Shown here in pieces: positions 9,603 to 14,937 of a stretch of DNA of 64,000 bases; within the stretch, counting starts at the first letter, position 1, and every line of letters begins with the position of its first letter. Below the pieces are notes generated by a model. The model was not told the origin of the DNA and did not search any database. It worked only from the letters and a program-made list of their open reading frames with translations. The translations under genes were made by a program, and so were the position numbers. The DNA is from an uncultured Methylomirabilota bacterium (GTDB lineage: Bacteria > Methylomirabilota > Methylomirabilia > Methylomirabilales > 2-02-FULL-66-22), in NCBI GenBank assembly GCA_963845565.1, contig CAWJSJ010000006.1:32001-96000 (forward strand), written 5' to 3'.

Positions 9603-9621
9603 TGCAAGACCTCCTCGGGAA

Positions 9622-9676
9622 AACCACAACGGGAATCTAATCCGCGAAATCTGTGCAATCGATGCAATCTGCGGTT
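9622..9676. repeat. Degenerate copy of the 9-bp-period AACCACAGAT...ATCTGTGGTT element in the hutU leader
   Basis: AACCACA...AATCCGCGA AATCTGTGC AATCGATGC AATCTGCGGTT; same right arm as the elements at 12.2-14.0 kb. Confidence 0.7.
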
Positions 9677-9677
9677 C

Positions 9678-9706
9678 AGTATAACCCCCGGTCCCTGGAG
9701 ATGCAA
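9678..9706 (-). promoter_or_regulatory. Putative sigma70 promoter for hutU
   Basis: Minus strand TTGCAT-17 nt-TATACT. Confidence 0.6.
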
Positions 9707-10585: not shown

Positions 10586-10598
10586 AGGTTGTGACGGT

Positions 10599-10657
10599 TC
10601 GGCGGTGCTGCCGTACTGCGGTCTGGAGGGAACCGCCGCACCTCGAACTGCAGCACC
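10599..10657. repeat. Degenerate 8-bp-period inverted tandem repeat
   Basis: TTCGGCGG TGCTGCCG TACTGCGG ... ACCGCCGC ACCTCGAA CTGCAGCA between the DMT gene and livF. Confidence 0.5.
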
Positions 10658-10660
10658 CGG

Positions 10661-11374
10661 TCAACCGCCCAAATAGGCCCTCTTCACTTCGGGGGCGGCG
10701 GCCAACTCTGCGGCGGAGCCGCAGAGCGTGATGCTGCCCGTCTCCAAGACGTAACCCCGTGTGGCCACGGAGAGAGCCATGCGGGCGTTTTGTTCCACCA
10801 GAAGGATGGTGGCCCCCTGTCGGTGCAGGTCGCGAATCGTCTGGAAGGTCTGCTCGACCAGCGTGGGCATCAGGCCGAGAGACACCTCGTCCAGTAGGAG
10901 CAACTGGGGCCGGCTGACCAGGGACCGGGCGATGGCGAGCATCTGCTGTTCACCGCCGGAGAGTGTCTTTCCCCGCTGGCGCGAACGCTCGCGAAGGCGC
11001 GGAAAGAGCGTGTAGGCGCTCTCCAGTGCCGCGGAGACCTCGCCGGCGCTCGAGAGGACGTACGCCCCTAGGCGCAGGTTCTCTTCCACGGTCAGGTCGG
11101 GGAGGATGCGCCGCCCTTCGGGAACCAGACTGATCCCGCGGCGGGCCCGAGCGTGCGGGGCCTCGGACGTGATGTCGGCGCCATCGAACAGGATCCGCCC
11201 TCCGCGCGGCCGCTGGAGACCCATCACGGCGCGCAGCGTGGTACTCTTGCCCGCGCCGTTCGCCCCGATGATGGTGACCAGGTCACCGCGGTGCACCTCG
11301 AAGCTCACGCCACGCACGGCCGCGAATTCGCCGTACGTTACCTCGAGGTTTCGGACTTCCAACAGCACTGTCAT
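10661..11374 (-). CDS. livF: Branched-chain amino acid-type ABC transporter ATPase (LivF family)
   Basis: GANGAGKST, LVPEGRRI, LSGGEQQMLAIAR, LLVEQNA; start set to MTVLLEVRNL. Confidence 0.9.
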   Translation of the reverse strand: MTVLLEVRNLEVTYGEFAAVRGVSFEVHRGDLVTIIGANGAGKSTTLRAVMGLQRPRGGRILFDGADITSEAPHARARRGISLVPEGRRILPDLTVEENLRLGAYVLSSAGEVSAALESAYTLFPRLRERSRQRGKTLSGGEQQMLAIARSLVSRPQLLLLDEVSLGLMPTLVEQTFQTIRDLHRQGATILLVEQNARMALSVATRGYVLETGSITLCGSAAELAAAPEVKRAYLGG

Positions 11375-11457
11375 TGGTCGACTCGTCGAGAAGTCAATTC
11401 GTGAGTACGGTTGGTCCGTGGCCAAATCGACCATTCGACCAATCGACTAATTGACTG
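11375..11457. repeat. 8-bp-period inverted tandem repeat
   Basis: TGGTCGAC TCGTCGAG AAGTCAAT ... AATCGACC ATTCGACC AATCGACT AATTGACT; overlaps the livG stop codon. Confidence 0.7.
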
Positions 11458-12215: not shown

Positions 12216-12315
12216 AACCACAGATTTCACGGATTTCACAGAGGAAGCAGACCCCTTCCCGATAGACCCAGGATCCGAACCAGAAGAATCTGTGTAATCT
12301 GCGTAATCGGTGGTT
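12216..12315. repeat. Gene-less 9-bp-period inverted-repeat element
   Basis: AACCACAGATTTCACGGATTTCACAGA ... CCCAGGATCC ... AATCTGTGTAATCTGCGTAATCGGTGGTT. Confidence 0.85.
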
Positions 12316-12356
12316 CCAACGTGTCTTACCCGATTGTCGGTCGTGCATTTGTCAGG

Positions 12357-13232
12357 CTACGGTATACCGAGCGCCATCCCGCGCACGAGGAGGCTCTGGT
12401 CCCCGAGGATCCCGTCCGGCTGGAAACGCATCAGCAAGAGCAGGAGGATTCCGTACAGGAGCGTGCGGTACTCCATGGCCGGCCGGGAGATCTCCGGCAG
12501 CGCGCCCAGGATGATCGCCCCCACGATGGGTCCCCGGAGCGTGCCGATGCCCCCGAACACGACCATCGAGAGAATGACCATGGACTGGGCGAAGCCGAAA
12601 TTGACCGGCATGATGAATGTCAGAAAATGGGCGTATAGACTGCCGGCCAGCCCCGCCCCGGCGCTCCCCAATGTGAAGGCCAGGACCTTGAAGCGAACCA
12701 CGTCGATCCCCATGGCGCCGGCCGCCTGCTCGTCTTCGCGAATCGCCGCCCAAGCCAGGCCGATCCACGATCGCGTGAGCCAGCGATCGGCGGCGATCGT
12801 CACCAGAATCACGACGCACACCAGGATGAGGAATCCCGACTTGCCGATCTCCGCGCCAAAAACGCTGGGCGGTTCGATTCCACCGATCCCCATACCGGCG
12901 CCGAAGAAGGGGATGTACAGGAAGACCGCCTCGATCACGAAGTTGATGCCCATCGTGGTGATGGCCAGGAAATCCTCGCGGACACGGAGGCAGGGGATCG
13001 CCAGGATCGCTCCCACCAGGCCGGCCATGAGACCGGCGATAAGAAAGGACGGCCAGAAACTGAACCCCGCCTTGGTGAAGAGGAGGGCGGACGTGTACGC
13101 CCCGATCCCCATGAACGCGGCATGGCCCAGCGAGATCTGACCCGCGTAGCCCGTGATGATGTTCAGGCTGAGGGCCAGAATGATATAGATCCCGATGGTG
13201 ATCAGGACCGTGATCGTGTATCCGCTCAACAC
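12357..13232 (-). CDS. livM: ABC transporter permease (LivM family)
   Basis: GYAGQISLGHAAFMGIGAY, AIREDEQAAGAMGID, VVFGGIGT. Confidence 0.9.
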   Translation of the reverse strand: MLSGYTITVLITIGIYIILALSLNIITGYAGQISLGHAAFMGIGAYTSALLFTKAGFSFWPSFLIAGLMAGLVGAILAIPCLRVREDFLAITTMGINFVIEAVFLYIPFFGAGMGIGGIEPPSVFGAEIGKSGFLILVCVVILVTIAADRWLTRSWIGLAWAAIREDEQAAGAMGIDVVRFKVLAFTLGSAGAGLAGSLYAHFLTFIMPVNFGFAQSMVILSMVVFGGIGTLRGPIVGAIILGALPEISRPAMEYRTLLYGILLLLLMRFQPDGILGDQSLLVRGMALGIP

Positions 13233-13252: not shown

Positions 13253-13335
13253 AACCACAGATTGCACAGATGACACAGATAGCACAGATGCAGCCCCGGG
13301 GTCCGATACCGGGGAAATCTGTGTAATCTGTGGTT
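13253..13335. repeat. 9-bp-period inverted-repeat element A
   Basis: AAC CACAGATTG CACAGATGA CACAGATAG CACAGATGC ... AATCTGTGT AATCTGTGGTT. Confidence 0.9.
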
Positions 13336-13377
13336 TCACGTAACACCGGAAGAATACCCCGTGGGCAACCACAGATT
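13323..13377 (+). repeat. 55-bp exact direct repeat, copy 1
   Basis: GTAATCTGTGGTTTCACGTAACACCGGAAGAATACCCCGTGGGCAACCACAGATT, identical to 13852-13906. Confidence 0.92.
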
Positions 13378-13384
13378 TCACAGA

Positions 13385-13768
13385 TTACACAGATGGGTCA
13401 TGGCCGGACACAAACCTCCTGTGCTGAAGCGAAGGCGCCCCGAAGTTGAGGAGGAGGGCAATGCGTAGGCCTGATGCCTTCAGGTAATTGAGAACCTGAG
13501 CCTCGTCAACGACGGTTAATTGCCGGATAGCTTTCAGTTCCAGGATTACCGAATCAAAACATATGAAGTCCGCACGGTAGGTAGGGGAGAGCTTCTCTCC
13601 CTTATAAAAAACGGGAATCTCACTCTGCGCGCGAAACGGAACGTTGCGCAAGCCAAGTTCCTTGGCCAGGGCGTCCTGGTACACCGCCTCAAGAAAACCC
13701 GGACCGAGTATCCGGTGAACTTCCAACGCCGCCCCGATTATCGCGTGCGTCCTAGCATCCCTTTCCAC
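13385..13768 (-). CDS. GxxExxY protein (PD-(D/E)XK nuclease-like)
   Basis: IIGAALEVHRILGPGFLEAVYQDAL, YRADF...VILELKA, EAQVLNYLKASG, LLLNFG; GTG start at 13768 after GGAG gives 127 aa (the ORF extends to 13834). Confidence 0.92.
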   Translation of the reverse strand: MERDARTHAIIGAALEVHRILGPGFLEAVYQDALAKELGLRNVPFRAQSEIPVFYKGEKLSPTYRADFICFDSVILELKAIRQLTVVDEAQVLNYLKASGLRIALLLNFGAPSLQHRRFVSGHDPSV

Positions 13769-13792
13769 GTCGGCTCCCGATTCAACTAGGGT

Positions 13793-13864
13793 AACCACAG
13801 ATTGCACAGATGGGTTAGGACCCGGATCCTGCATTAATCTGTGTAATCTGCGTAATCTGTGGTT
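13793..13864. repeat. 9-bp-period inverted-repeat element B
   Basis: AACCACAGATTGCACAGAT ... CCCGGATCC ... AATCTGTGTAATCTGCGTAATCTGTGGTT. Confidence 0.9.
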
Positions 13865-13906
13865 TCACGTAACACCGGAAGAATACCCCGTGGGCAACCA
13901 CAGATT
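13852..13906 (+). repeat. 55-bp exact direct repeat, copy 2
   Basis: Identical to 13323-13377, offset 529 bp. Confidence 0.92.
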
Positions 13907-13995
13907 GCACAGATTCCACAGATTCCACAGATGGCACAGATTTGGCCCCGGGTCCGAACACAGAGAAATCTGTGTAATCTGTGAAATCTGTGGTT
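13896..13995. repeat. 9-bp-period inverted-repeat element C
   Basis: Five CACAGATnn units ... CCCGGGTCC ... AATCTGTGT AATCTGTGA AATCTGTGGTT. Confidence 0.9.
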
Positions 13996-14002
13996 TCGCG
14001 CC

Positions 14003-14860
14003 TCAGCCTTTTCCTAGCAGCCCGTGGGGGCGGAACATCAGGACCAGGATCATGGCCACGAACGCCAGGGCATCGCGCGGGAACGGGATGGCCACCACCC
14101 CGATCAGGAGCGTCTCTGCCAGTCCGATAAGGAACGAGGCCAGGACGCTTCCCGGGATGTTTCCCAGGCCGCCGAGGACGACGATTGCAAGACACTTGTA
14201 TGCGGGGATGCTGCCCATCGTCGGCCACACCTGATTATCGTAGACGCCGATGAGGACGCCCGCCGCACCGGCCAGGGCGGAGCCGATGACGAAGTTCAAG
14301 GTGACTACCAGCCGGGTGTTCACGCCGAACGTCGAGGTGGTGTCGGCATCCATGGCGGTGGCCCGCATGCTGAGGCCGACGGCGGAGCGGGACAAAAGAA
14401 GCCAGAGGAGTCCGAGCAATCCCAGCGTCACAGTGAAGATCAGGCTCTGTGGAGAGCTCAGACGGAGCGGCCCGGCGCTCAAGGCGGGGAAATGGATCTC
14501 GGCATCGTAGGCCAGGGCATAGGGTCCTGCGACGATGCGGAATGCCTCCTCCATGGCGATGAAAAGCCCAATGCTTCCGATGAGCGGCACGATCCGCGGC
14601 AGATGGAGGAGCGGAGCGTAGAGGAACCGCTCCACCAGGACCCCGACCACGGCGCACACGGCCATGGCTACGGCCAGGCTCAGCCAGAAGTTCCCGAGGA
14701 GCCGGAATGCGACGACACCCGAGTAGGCGCCCAGGGCATAGATGCCCGCGTGGGCCACGTGGAGCACGCGCAGCACGCCGTACACCATGGTGAGGCCCAG
14801 TGTGGTGAGGGCGTACACGGCGCCGGTGGCAATTCCATTGGCGATCTGCTGCCAAATCAT
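14003..14860 (-). CDS. livH: ABC transporter permease (LivH family)
   Basis: QQIANGIATGAVYAL, YGVLRVLHVAHA, GLSMRATA, VLGGLGNIPG, RPHGLLG. Confidence 0.9.
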   Translation of the reverse strand: MIWQQIANGIATGAVYALTTLGLTMVYGVLRVLHVAHAGIYALGAYSGVVAFRLLGNFWLSLAVAMAVCAVVGVLVERFLYAPLLHLPRIVPLIGSIGLFIAMEEAFRIVAGPYALAYDAEIHFPALSAGPLRLSSPQSLIFTVTLGLLGLLWLLLSRSAVGLSMRATAMDADTTSTFGVNTRLVVTLNFVIGSALAGAAGVLIGVYDNQVWPTMGSIPAYKCLAIVVLGGLGNIPGSVLASFLIGLAETLLIGVVAIPFPRDALAFVAMILVLMFRPHGLLGKG

Positions 14861-14863
14861 GCG

Positions 14864-14937
14864 GAGAGCCTAGAATCGAGAGCCGAGAACGGCGAGCCAC
14901 GAGCCACGAGCCGCGACTGACCGCTGACCGCTGTCGC
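14864..14937. repeat. 7-bp-period tandem repeat
   Basis: GAGAGCC TAGAATC GAGAGCC GAGAACG GCGAGCC ACGAGCC ACGAGCC, then CTGACCG CTGACCG. Confidence 0.75.

Follow-up and report, generated by a model that had tools for sequence, protein, structure and literature searches.

A GxxExxY (PDDEXK_3) gene between inverted arrays of 9-nt words, stacked with gene-less hairpins in a liv operon: a candidate nuclease-repeat cassette

Two described systems pair an enzyme with palindromic repeats of bacterial genomes. Ssn is a tiny single-domain nuclease flanked by its cognate hairpin repeats, termed NTS or SRM (Chenal et al. 2025, PMC11893778). The second system is formed by RAYT proteins and REP sequences; as far as the consulted parts of PMC2817692 and PMC3116915 go, BIMEs flank one third of rayt genes. 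PMC3424549 lists the PDDEXK_3/GxxExxY proteins as a family of unknown function with multiple transfers between divisions, and its consulted passages make no link to repeats. In other literature a GxxExxY protein figures as a reverse-transcriptase neighbour. No description of a GxxExxY-repeat pairing was found in the literature searched, subscription journals and supplements lying outside its scope.

The window, that is the whole 64,000-nt stretch of DNA analysed here, from an uncultured Methylomirabilota bacterium (genome G000), carries a GxxExxY gene between the genes of a livH-like and a livM-like permease, all three on the minus strand (Table 1). In the direction of transcription the order is livH stop, hairpin C, spacer S, hairpin B, leader, GxxExxY gene, 3' arm, S, hairpin A and livM leader. 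Our main reading, to which we give a probability of about 0.6, is that the locus holds a cassette with two stacked gene-less hairpins, likely deletion derivatives of such cassettes. Binding to the word arrays at DNA level and cutting in their vicinity would be the likely activity of the protein, which would drive copying and stacking.

By analogy the cassette likely works like RAYT/REP/BIME or Ssn/SRM, and it belongs to neither because the enzyme that defines each of them (Y1/HUH and GIY-YIG, respectively) was not recognised in the GxxExxY protein; the REP/RAYT comparison drawn in the initial annotation fits in this sense. Cognate repeats lie on both sides of 42% of Ssn homologues and arms bracket 79/107 loci here, and the two systems share many gene-less copies, clusters and a spread across phyla, as presented in the main text of PMC11893778. 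In the same text the SsnA cut is placed a few bases beyond the hairpin; flanks that travel with the arms in our case would be consistent with such a cut. It describes Ssn as a GIY-YIG protein (cd10448) in contrast to the present PD-(D/E)XK protein, and SRMs as inverted repeats of 20-50 nt, while the arms here are tandem arrays of 9-10-nt words, two of which bracket the gene. The terms 'XK nuclease', 'helix bundle', 'DUF559' and 'vsr' have no match in this main text.

A gene between two inverted repeats and an apparent co-evolution of repeat and protein are also features of RAYT/REP in the consulted parts of PMC2817692 and PMC3116915, as are scattered doublets that lack the gene and, next to the gene, modular clusters in tandem. 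Such BIME-like clusters are found at the present locus, L021, L099, L094 and L124. The differences, on the same partial sources, are that RAYT is an IS200/IS605-like Y1 (HUH) transposase, a fold not found in the GxxExxY protein, that REPs are each palindromic and usually exceed 100 copies, while no single GxxExxY arm is a palindrome and a genome has tens of them (G000 has 30 exact-pattern matches, and a relative at most 68), and that rayt genes evolve faster than their neighbours while the GxxExxY gene keeps pace with livM. Intergenic heptamer repeats are likewise tandem arrays of short words located between genes, near start codons, and patchy across phyla; the consulted part of PMC4679880 describes them as direct repeats without a linked gene, unlike the inverted arms that bracket specific small genes here, and has no match for 'four helix' or 'nuclease'. 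Terminal inverted repeats and internal-deletion derivatives recall insertion sequences and MITEs, but profile searches of the gene found no known transposase family. The locus also differs from a direct-repeat-bounded integrative unit: gene-bearing alleles are not always repeat-bounded, and no one-copy empty allele was seen.

Table 1. Features of the livH-livM region and of the livM-livG junction (positions in the window)
Feature	Position	Strand	Remark
livH-like permease	14003..14860	-	upstream host gene; BPD_transp_2
hairpin C, gene-less mini-element	13896..13995	.	directly 3' of livH stop
spacer S copy 1, 31 nt	13865..13895	-	resembles livM-type leader and first livM bases, joined to cassette left flank
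55-bp exact direct repeat, copy 1	13852..13906	.	sequence identity
hairpin B	13793..13864	.	5' arm of cassette (13837-13864), loop and extra inner arm
leader of GxxExxY gene	13769..13792	-	ribosome-binding-like GGGAG ahead of GTG
GxxExxY (PDDEXK_3) gene	13385..13768	-	127 aa, GTG start at 13768
cassette 3' arm, three 9-nt words	13367..13394	-	'orphan arm' of the initial annotation
spacer S copy 2	13336..13366	-	identical to copy 1
55-bp exact direct repeat, copy 2	13323..13377	.	arm end, S and arm start
hairpin A, gene-less mini-element	13253..13335	.	youngest part of the stack
livM-like permease	12357..13232	-	downstream host gene; BPD_transp_2
hairpin D, livM-livG junction	12217..12316	.	9-mer family as at livH-livM

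The initial annotation had the order and coordinates of the elements right, and its two 55-bp blocks are indeed identical at a period of 529, the match stopping at both edges. Its 'orphan left arm' needs a different reading. This segment is 93% complementary over 28 nt to 13837-13864, the outer arm of hairpin B, with which it pairs across the gene; the basic cassette unit is therefore 5' arm, leader, GxxExxY gene and 3' arm. The 3' arm was found in every gene-bearing allele seen, and the stop codon of the gene (13385-13387) lies within it, as had been noticed before. A minimal cassette of 492-494 nt with a homologous leader, devoid of hairpin B, occupies the livH-livM junction in L179, L187 and L249. 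The locus as a whole would thus consist of three stacked junction units, two of which have no gene.

Contigs of sequencing runs X1, X2, X3 and X5 also cover the region. In the X3 strain, which differs at 22/1066 letters, the 55-mer forms a contig of its own whose depth (31.9) is about twice that of its four neighbours (9.4-14.2), so both copies are real and no assembly artefact; hairpin A is present in this strain. The number of 9-nt units in hairpin C differs between strains, 9 letters being left out in X1 and X2. Gene-less repeat copies are dispersed in the genome. The arms are not a chance feature: when up to 2 mismatches are allowed, a 20-nt arm pattern finds 40 genomic matches vs 0 in one block-shuffled copy. 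With up to 3 mismatches the matches form 34 genomic clusters, the shuffle yielding 6 matches, all at 3 mismatches. A terminator-like stem with a weak T tail is found at each arm-S boundary on the minus strand (13358-13375 and 13887-13904); 4 terminator-like sites were found vs 0.8 +/- 1.0 in shuffles. Stacking of arm-S boundaries could reduce livM expression.

Matches of the ORF to PF13366 PDDEXK_3 (E 1e-39, 136 bits, cut-off 22) and TIGR04256 GxxExxY (E 1e-41, 141.8 bits, cut-off 35) confirm its assignment to this family, and PDDEXK_3 is the only Pfam profile that passes. Translation likely starts at the GTG at 13768, which has GGGAG upstream and agrees with homologues. An ATG at 13834, which reads through hairpin B, was rejected as start. 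G24, E27, Y30, D67, K79 and Q91 are invariant in 67 sequences, in which E77 and Y95 are at least 90% conserved. A QxxxY motif, as in Cas4/RecB-type nucleases, is present in the protein.

The structure model (pLDDT 92.4) finds its best Foldseek match in Cas4 SSO0001 (E 3.6e-4, TM 0.60), followed by RecE and phage exonucleases. The best VIA-align Z scores, 8.1 for BpuSI (rmsd 3.0, 95 aligned) and 7.8 for SSO0001 (rmsd 4.9, 106 aligned), are near the background of the tool; HUH and GIY-YIG proteins are missing from its best 50 rows, an absence too weak by itself to dismiss such folds. The modelled fold appears to be Cas4-like PD-(D/E)XK, neither HUH nor GIY-YIG, with Cas4/RecB-type nucleases (SSO0001, RecE, lambda exonuclease) as the closest solved folds. 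Cas4 has four conserved cysteines for an Fe-S cluster; the GxxExxY protein is shorter, and cysteine is absent from the invariant and 90% columns of the 67 sequences. Pfam Cas_Cas4 matches 5/67 members weakly (best E 0.0048). Sequence search with the protein gave nothing below E 0.6 among solved structures, and the search of ESM Atlas proteins without PF13366 gave no usable match. A shared fold alone shows no function; nuclease activity is predicted because conserved catalytic-type residues are combined with selection.

Compared to same-site alleles the gene has a dN/dS of 0.02-0.16, and its dS follows that of livM (0.6-1.2 vs 0.6-0.98 for intact distant alleles). The gene is therefore long-resident and under purifying selection. 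It is broken by a frameshift in G004 and part-deleted in L195 and L204. Despite this long residence its GC content is 55% (62.5% at third positions) vs 63% (87%) in livM. The genome has a second GxxExxY gene at G000:C5:118567-118908 (L044), 37% identical and with arms of another word, which is also found nested with CAGAT arms at C2:439413 and C2:1356846.

The association of arms and gene was assessed with a word-blind test in which the 160 nt before the gene are aligned with the downstream 125 nt in reverse complement, a score of at least 30 being taken as positive. The test took in the 107 scorable loci of 110, and 388 shifted windows served as controls. Bracketing inverted arms are found in 79/107 GxxExxY loci vs 1/388 shifted windows, which supports a tight tie of the repeats to these genes; the initial annotation had put forward such an enrichment as a check. 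Without four duplicates (L049, L064, L024 and L083) the figure is 76/103; by source, 24/29 loci from relatives and 55/78 from other genomes are bracketed, while strong arms are missing in 28/107. The upstream neighbour is on the same strand in 77/88 cases by crude ORF calls, a count left out of the argument because antisense ORFs are common at this GC. Viral contigs (L282-L291) contribute 10 GxxExxY loci, 6 of them with an arm score of at least 30, mostly with other words, and such contigs are a possible transfer route of GxxExxY genes.

In a quick tree of 97 intact proteins, a clade of 84 (SH-aLRT 100) spans at least 12 phyla; 72 of its rows show a CAGAT-type word beside the gene, on one side or on both, and none shows any of the other word classes. 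The words CCAAG, CAGAG/CAAAG and the 10-mers belong to other clades, within one host genus. These counts come from a cross-phylum sample picked by similarity to the query, and hence biased to its clade, with 1-6 rows for each of the other word classes and one 10-mer row that the pattern mislabelled as CAGAT9. The arms of one element match each other above the arms of other elements (196/270 vs 145 +/- 8 in 30 loci), mostly at lineage-wide positions. The arm pattern is present in 19/20 same-genus genomes vs 2/40 others and the GxxExxY gene in 17/20 vs 2/40; of the two out-of-genus genomes with the arm pattern, one is the only one with a CAGAT-clade gene. Arm matches number 40 in G015 (96% complete) and 57 in G018 (93%), two genomes with a negative GxxExxY search, which argues against a strict dependence of arms on the gene. 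The pairing of gene and arms is found again in many bacterial phyla; recognition of these repeats by the protein, with a part in their spread, is therefore likely.

The livH-livM junction was surveyed in 13 same-genus genomes with both permeases (13/20 had a livM match) and in the 70 full junctions of 80 metagenome loci, some of which are one and the same strain. The 13 same-genus junctions carry the gene (2, intact in G009 and frameshifted in G004), a gene-less 9-mer hairpin (4), a 6-mer palindrome (5) or a 7-mer palindrome (2). The 27 near metagenome junctions divide into 8 with the gene or what is left of it, 5 with a 9-mer hairpin that has no gene and 14 with other arrays. Periodic arrays are found in 25/27 near junctions vs 8/270 shuffles and in 27/43 distant ones vs 5/430. 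Empty-site orthologues, suggested earlier as a check of insertion, do not occur in this sample (0/13 same-genus genomes and 0/70 metagenome junctions, the shortest being 60 nt); relatives have gene-less 9-mer hairpins or 6-8-mer palindromes in that position. Since no junction is empty, a hairpin may be kept there for a use of the host.

In the livM tree the gene is limited to one clade (support 0.98) plus L195, and gene-bearing and gene-less alleles are interleaved within one livM clade. An X5 contig joins livM to livH by 125 other letters, the short allele of a near strain. The 6-mer palindrome family is found at this junction in G016, G003, G008, G006, G010 and several metagenome loci. A G/C-rich hairpin family, nested in 9-mer arms or alone, occurs at the same junctions in L009/L136 (G017), L193, L207 and L214; it presumably resembles the repeats beside DUF559 genes.

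Most junctions of the liv operon have short-word palindromes in most of 14 genomes, with families that differ between orthologues. In the window, a 7-mer array lies at the livK-livH junction (14861-14937), 8-mer-like arrays lie at livG-livF (11366-11446) and livF-eamA (10586-10660), and a lone 9-mer arm precedes hutU (9603-9706), where G009 has a full hairpin. The livM-livG junction of L178 carries, relative to G016, an insert with short inverted ends and a CCAAG-type hairpin inside; on its two sides lies what looks like a 14-bp duplication, of which G016 has one copy. TIGR02436 four-helix-bundle genes (L142-L171) have inverted 7-8-mer arms of many words in 24/30 loci, a sample drawn from well over 100 matches in the genus for which the 1/388 control figure of the GxxExxY test does not count. 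These genes and their word arms would form a parallel cassette family.

Gene-less hairpins were compared to the cassette leaders of the same site by an alignment anchored at the arm, with 88 control loops. The scores of the loops of hairpins A, C and D are reached by 0/88 controls, and two arms in L173's version of D also beat all 88. The loop of hairpin B scores more weakly, 4/88 controls being as high. Individual loop-to-leader alignments are mostly within shuffle range, and only the anchored test separates them. A post hoc tally of loop motifs was set aside in favour of the alignment scores. The clearest deletion derivative is the upstream element of L099, in which the leader and first 7 codons are joined to the gene end; part-deleted genes stand at the livH-livM junction itself in L195 and L204. 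The origin of gene-less elements by internal deletion of the cassette is shown at other loci and appears likely here, where the loop comparisons support it.

Hairpin D is surrounded by the remnants of a 7-mer palindrome still present in most relatives, and is likely a local copy from the livH-livM element. In L173 a further B-type hairpin, missing in G000 and G009, is nested in D, with an independent joint in an X3 contig; it is the best sign of local copying. Genome-wide, most 9-mer hairpins are at orthologous sites common to G009 and G000, which suggests that their movement is slow, infrequent or past. The 18 loci compared between these genomes yielded at least one clear presence/absence case, without a clean target duplication.

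The initial annotation suggested that the 529-bp unit could insert or excise through the 55-bp direct repeat; entry by this route is not supported. Eight related loci (G009, G004, L172, L173, L179, L183, L187 and L249) have the gene at livH-livM without this repeat, and the gene diverged with livM. In L172 and L173 (99% livM protein identity, 835/852 nt) the 3' arm runs straight into the livM leader; the second S and hairpin A are absent, as they are from G009. L172 carries C-S-B and G009 carries B alone. As all outgroup alleles are devoid of S-A, this segment is a late gain and the 55-bp repeat was not the entry route of the gene. In our reading the repeat is a by-product, through which looping out of the 529-bp unit could now be possible. 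No joint skipping 529 bp is found among the 15 joints listed, in contigs that cannot resolve a skip through a 55-nt repeat, and no gene-less C-S-A allele among 13 genomes and 70 metagenome junctions.

The first 25 nt of S align with the livM leader and first livM bases. Scores are 32 for the leader of L186, a gene-less allele and the best match, 29 for the own livM leader and 34 for the L195 homologue (shuffle maxima of 20, 20 and 22, respectively). The last 6 nt of S equal the left flank of the minimal cassette L179. S has two copies only in the genome, and its junction pattern is found in 1/201 genomes (G000), in a sample without G004 and G009. A role of S as foreign attachment site was rejected; S is locus-specific and resembles the local livM leader and the cassette left flank. 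Most simply, S would be a right flank joined head-to-tail to a left flank.

G009 combines the left flank of C with the loop of B, suggesting a loss of C-S by deletion between 5' arms. The loop of A is not a copy of that of B, so S-A probably derives from a different allele that recombined at the 3' arm. L172 and L173 are mosaic. L172 is ~99.5% identical to the window left of the arm (372-nt match up to the arm) and about 97-98% right of it; this step in identity is no proof of a crossover at the arm, and L172 itself could be recombinant within the 3' end of the gene.

After masking of arm words, direct repeats scoring at least 42 frame the gene in 5/98 loci, the control maximum being 36 in 355, and at a threshold of 26 there is no enrichment (8/98 vs 21/355). 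The order mini-element, S, cassette, S, mini-element is also found in L021 (G012, another word family) and in L099 (a gammaproteobacterium), where S likewise starts like the right flank and ends like the left flank. The permutation of spacers against flanks took in 16 spacers from 9 loci and is partly circular for long arrays; L021, L099 and the present locus are those relied on. Longer tandem arrays, with decayed cassettes or mini-hairpins, lie beside the GxxExxY genes of L124, L094, L051, L071 and L114.

In the mechanism that we favour, the GxxExxY protein would bind DNA sequence-specifically at word arrays and cleave near them, an activity that would seed dispersed hairpins. Internal deletion of the cassette would yield gene-less hairpins. 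S would mark, as a scar, where two junction units were joined head-to-tail, its second copy arriving with hairpin A by unequal recombination at the arm with another allele, later than the cassette. A wider version, which we regard as a tentative possibility, makes the PD-(D/E)XK nuclease the mobiliser of an undescribed kind of mobile DNA. It would read tandem word arrays, cut a few bases outside, join right to left flank and re-insert at operon junctions, gene-less hairpins included; together with the four-helix-bundle 7-8-mer cassettes, such elements would compete for and replace one another in fixed intergenic slots.

Four other explanations were weighed against the binding-and-cutting reading. 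A homing cycle, in which the nuclease cuts gene-less alleles at the junction and repair from a transferred gene-bearing allele copies the cassette in, leaving S as re-invasion scar of an L186-type gene-less allele, appears unlikely. The interleaving of both allele types in one livM clade would fit it, as would the mosaic L172 and L173 and the composition of S from an L186-type right flank and an L179-type left flank. The gene stays at one site under purifying selection and yet decays repeatedly, which is the pattern of a homing cycle. The allelic pattern at livH-livM is compatible with homing without being diagnostic. Against homing, the gene-less hairpin is still there in the product and was not converted, the genus has the cassette at many sites unrelated to one another, genomes with an intact gene continue to carry gene-less hairpins, and L099 is more simply explained by plain tandem duplication. 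An original integration or excision of the 529-bp unit with the 55-bp repeat as attachment site, as first proposed, is highly improbable. The exactness of the repeat, its period of one flank-to-flank unit and the similar framing at L021 and L099 speak for it, but the eight repeat-free alleles, the locus-specific S, the absence of a gene-less C-S-A allele from the 13 genomes and 70 metagenome junctions and that of a 529-skip joint among the 15 listed (subject to the resolution of the contigs) stand against it.

The arms might instead act in RNA, pairing within the transcript much as happens around the intervening sequences of 23S rRNA and controlling processing, stability or translational coupling of the operon genes, with a protein that acts on RNA or is a passenger. 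The elements do sit between a stop and the next start, nearly every junction of the operon has a palindrome in most of the 14 genomes, the never-empty livH-livM junction suggests a kept hairpin, and predicted RNA folding of the region has a z of -6.4 (vs 20 shuffles). Heptamer repeats upstream of start codons were moreover proposed as translational signals in the consulted part of PMC4679880. We nevertheless find this quite unlikely. No bias of G-U over A-C is seen on the transcribed strand (54 vs 61; 43 vs 56), which leans to a use at DNA level and is compatible with an RNA role, and there is no folding asymmetry between strands (46/92). Unit-specific arm positions match weakly (0.50, 0.60 and 0.47 vs 0.36, 0.56 and 0.31 for cross-pairs), so binding words fit better than a perfect stem, and Rfam gave sub-threshold hairpin matches only, no family coming near its gathering score. 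It is very unlikely that the gene is mere cargo of arms spread by a factor of the host or of another element, its protein ignoring them. The similar arms of TIGR02436 genes (24/30 loci) make a shared trans factor possible and the arm-rich G015 and G018 have no detected GxxExxY gene, but even inside one host genus the arm word follows the GxxExxY clade, and the gene shows purifying selection and invariant catalytic-type residues. Some of this correspondence could come from co-inheritance, which would not readily account for its being stable over at least 12 phyla.

For the large and widespread PDDEXK_3/GxxExxY family the locus offers a direct test of function, with the word arrays as candidate substrate. 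The diversity of arm words among clades provides natural specificity variants for swap tests, and the allelic series shows cassette decay, stacking and local copying. If the protein cuts its arms, PD-(D/E)XK would be the third enzyme superfamily paired with palindromic repeats, after HUH (RAYT) and GIY-YIG (Ssn), and could supply very small nucleases with sequence specificity. The wider mobiliser version, if true, would provide a family of enzymes of 130 residues that differ in the words they recognise. Orthologous junctions that are never empty and swap repeat families bear on the origin of bacterial short-word intergenic repeats, and elements that compete for such slots would, if real, explain the hexa- to decamer intergenic repeats of many bacterial phyla.
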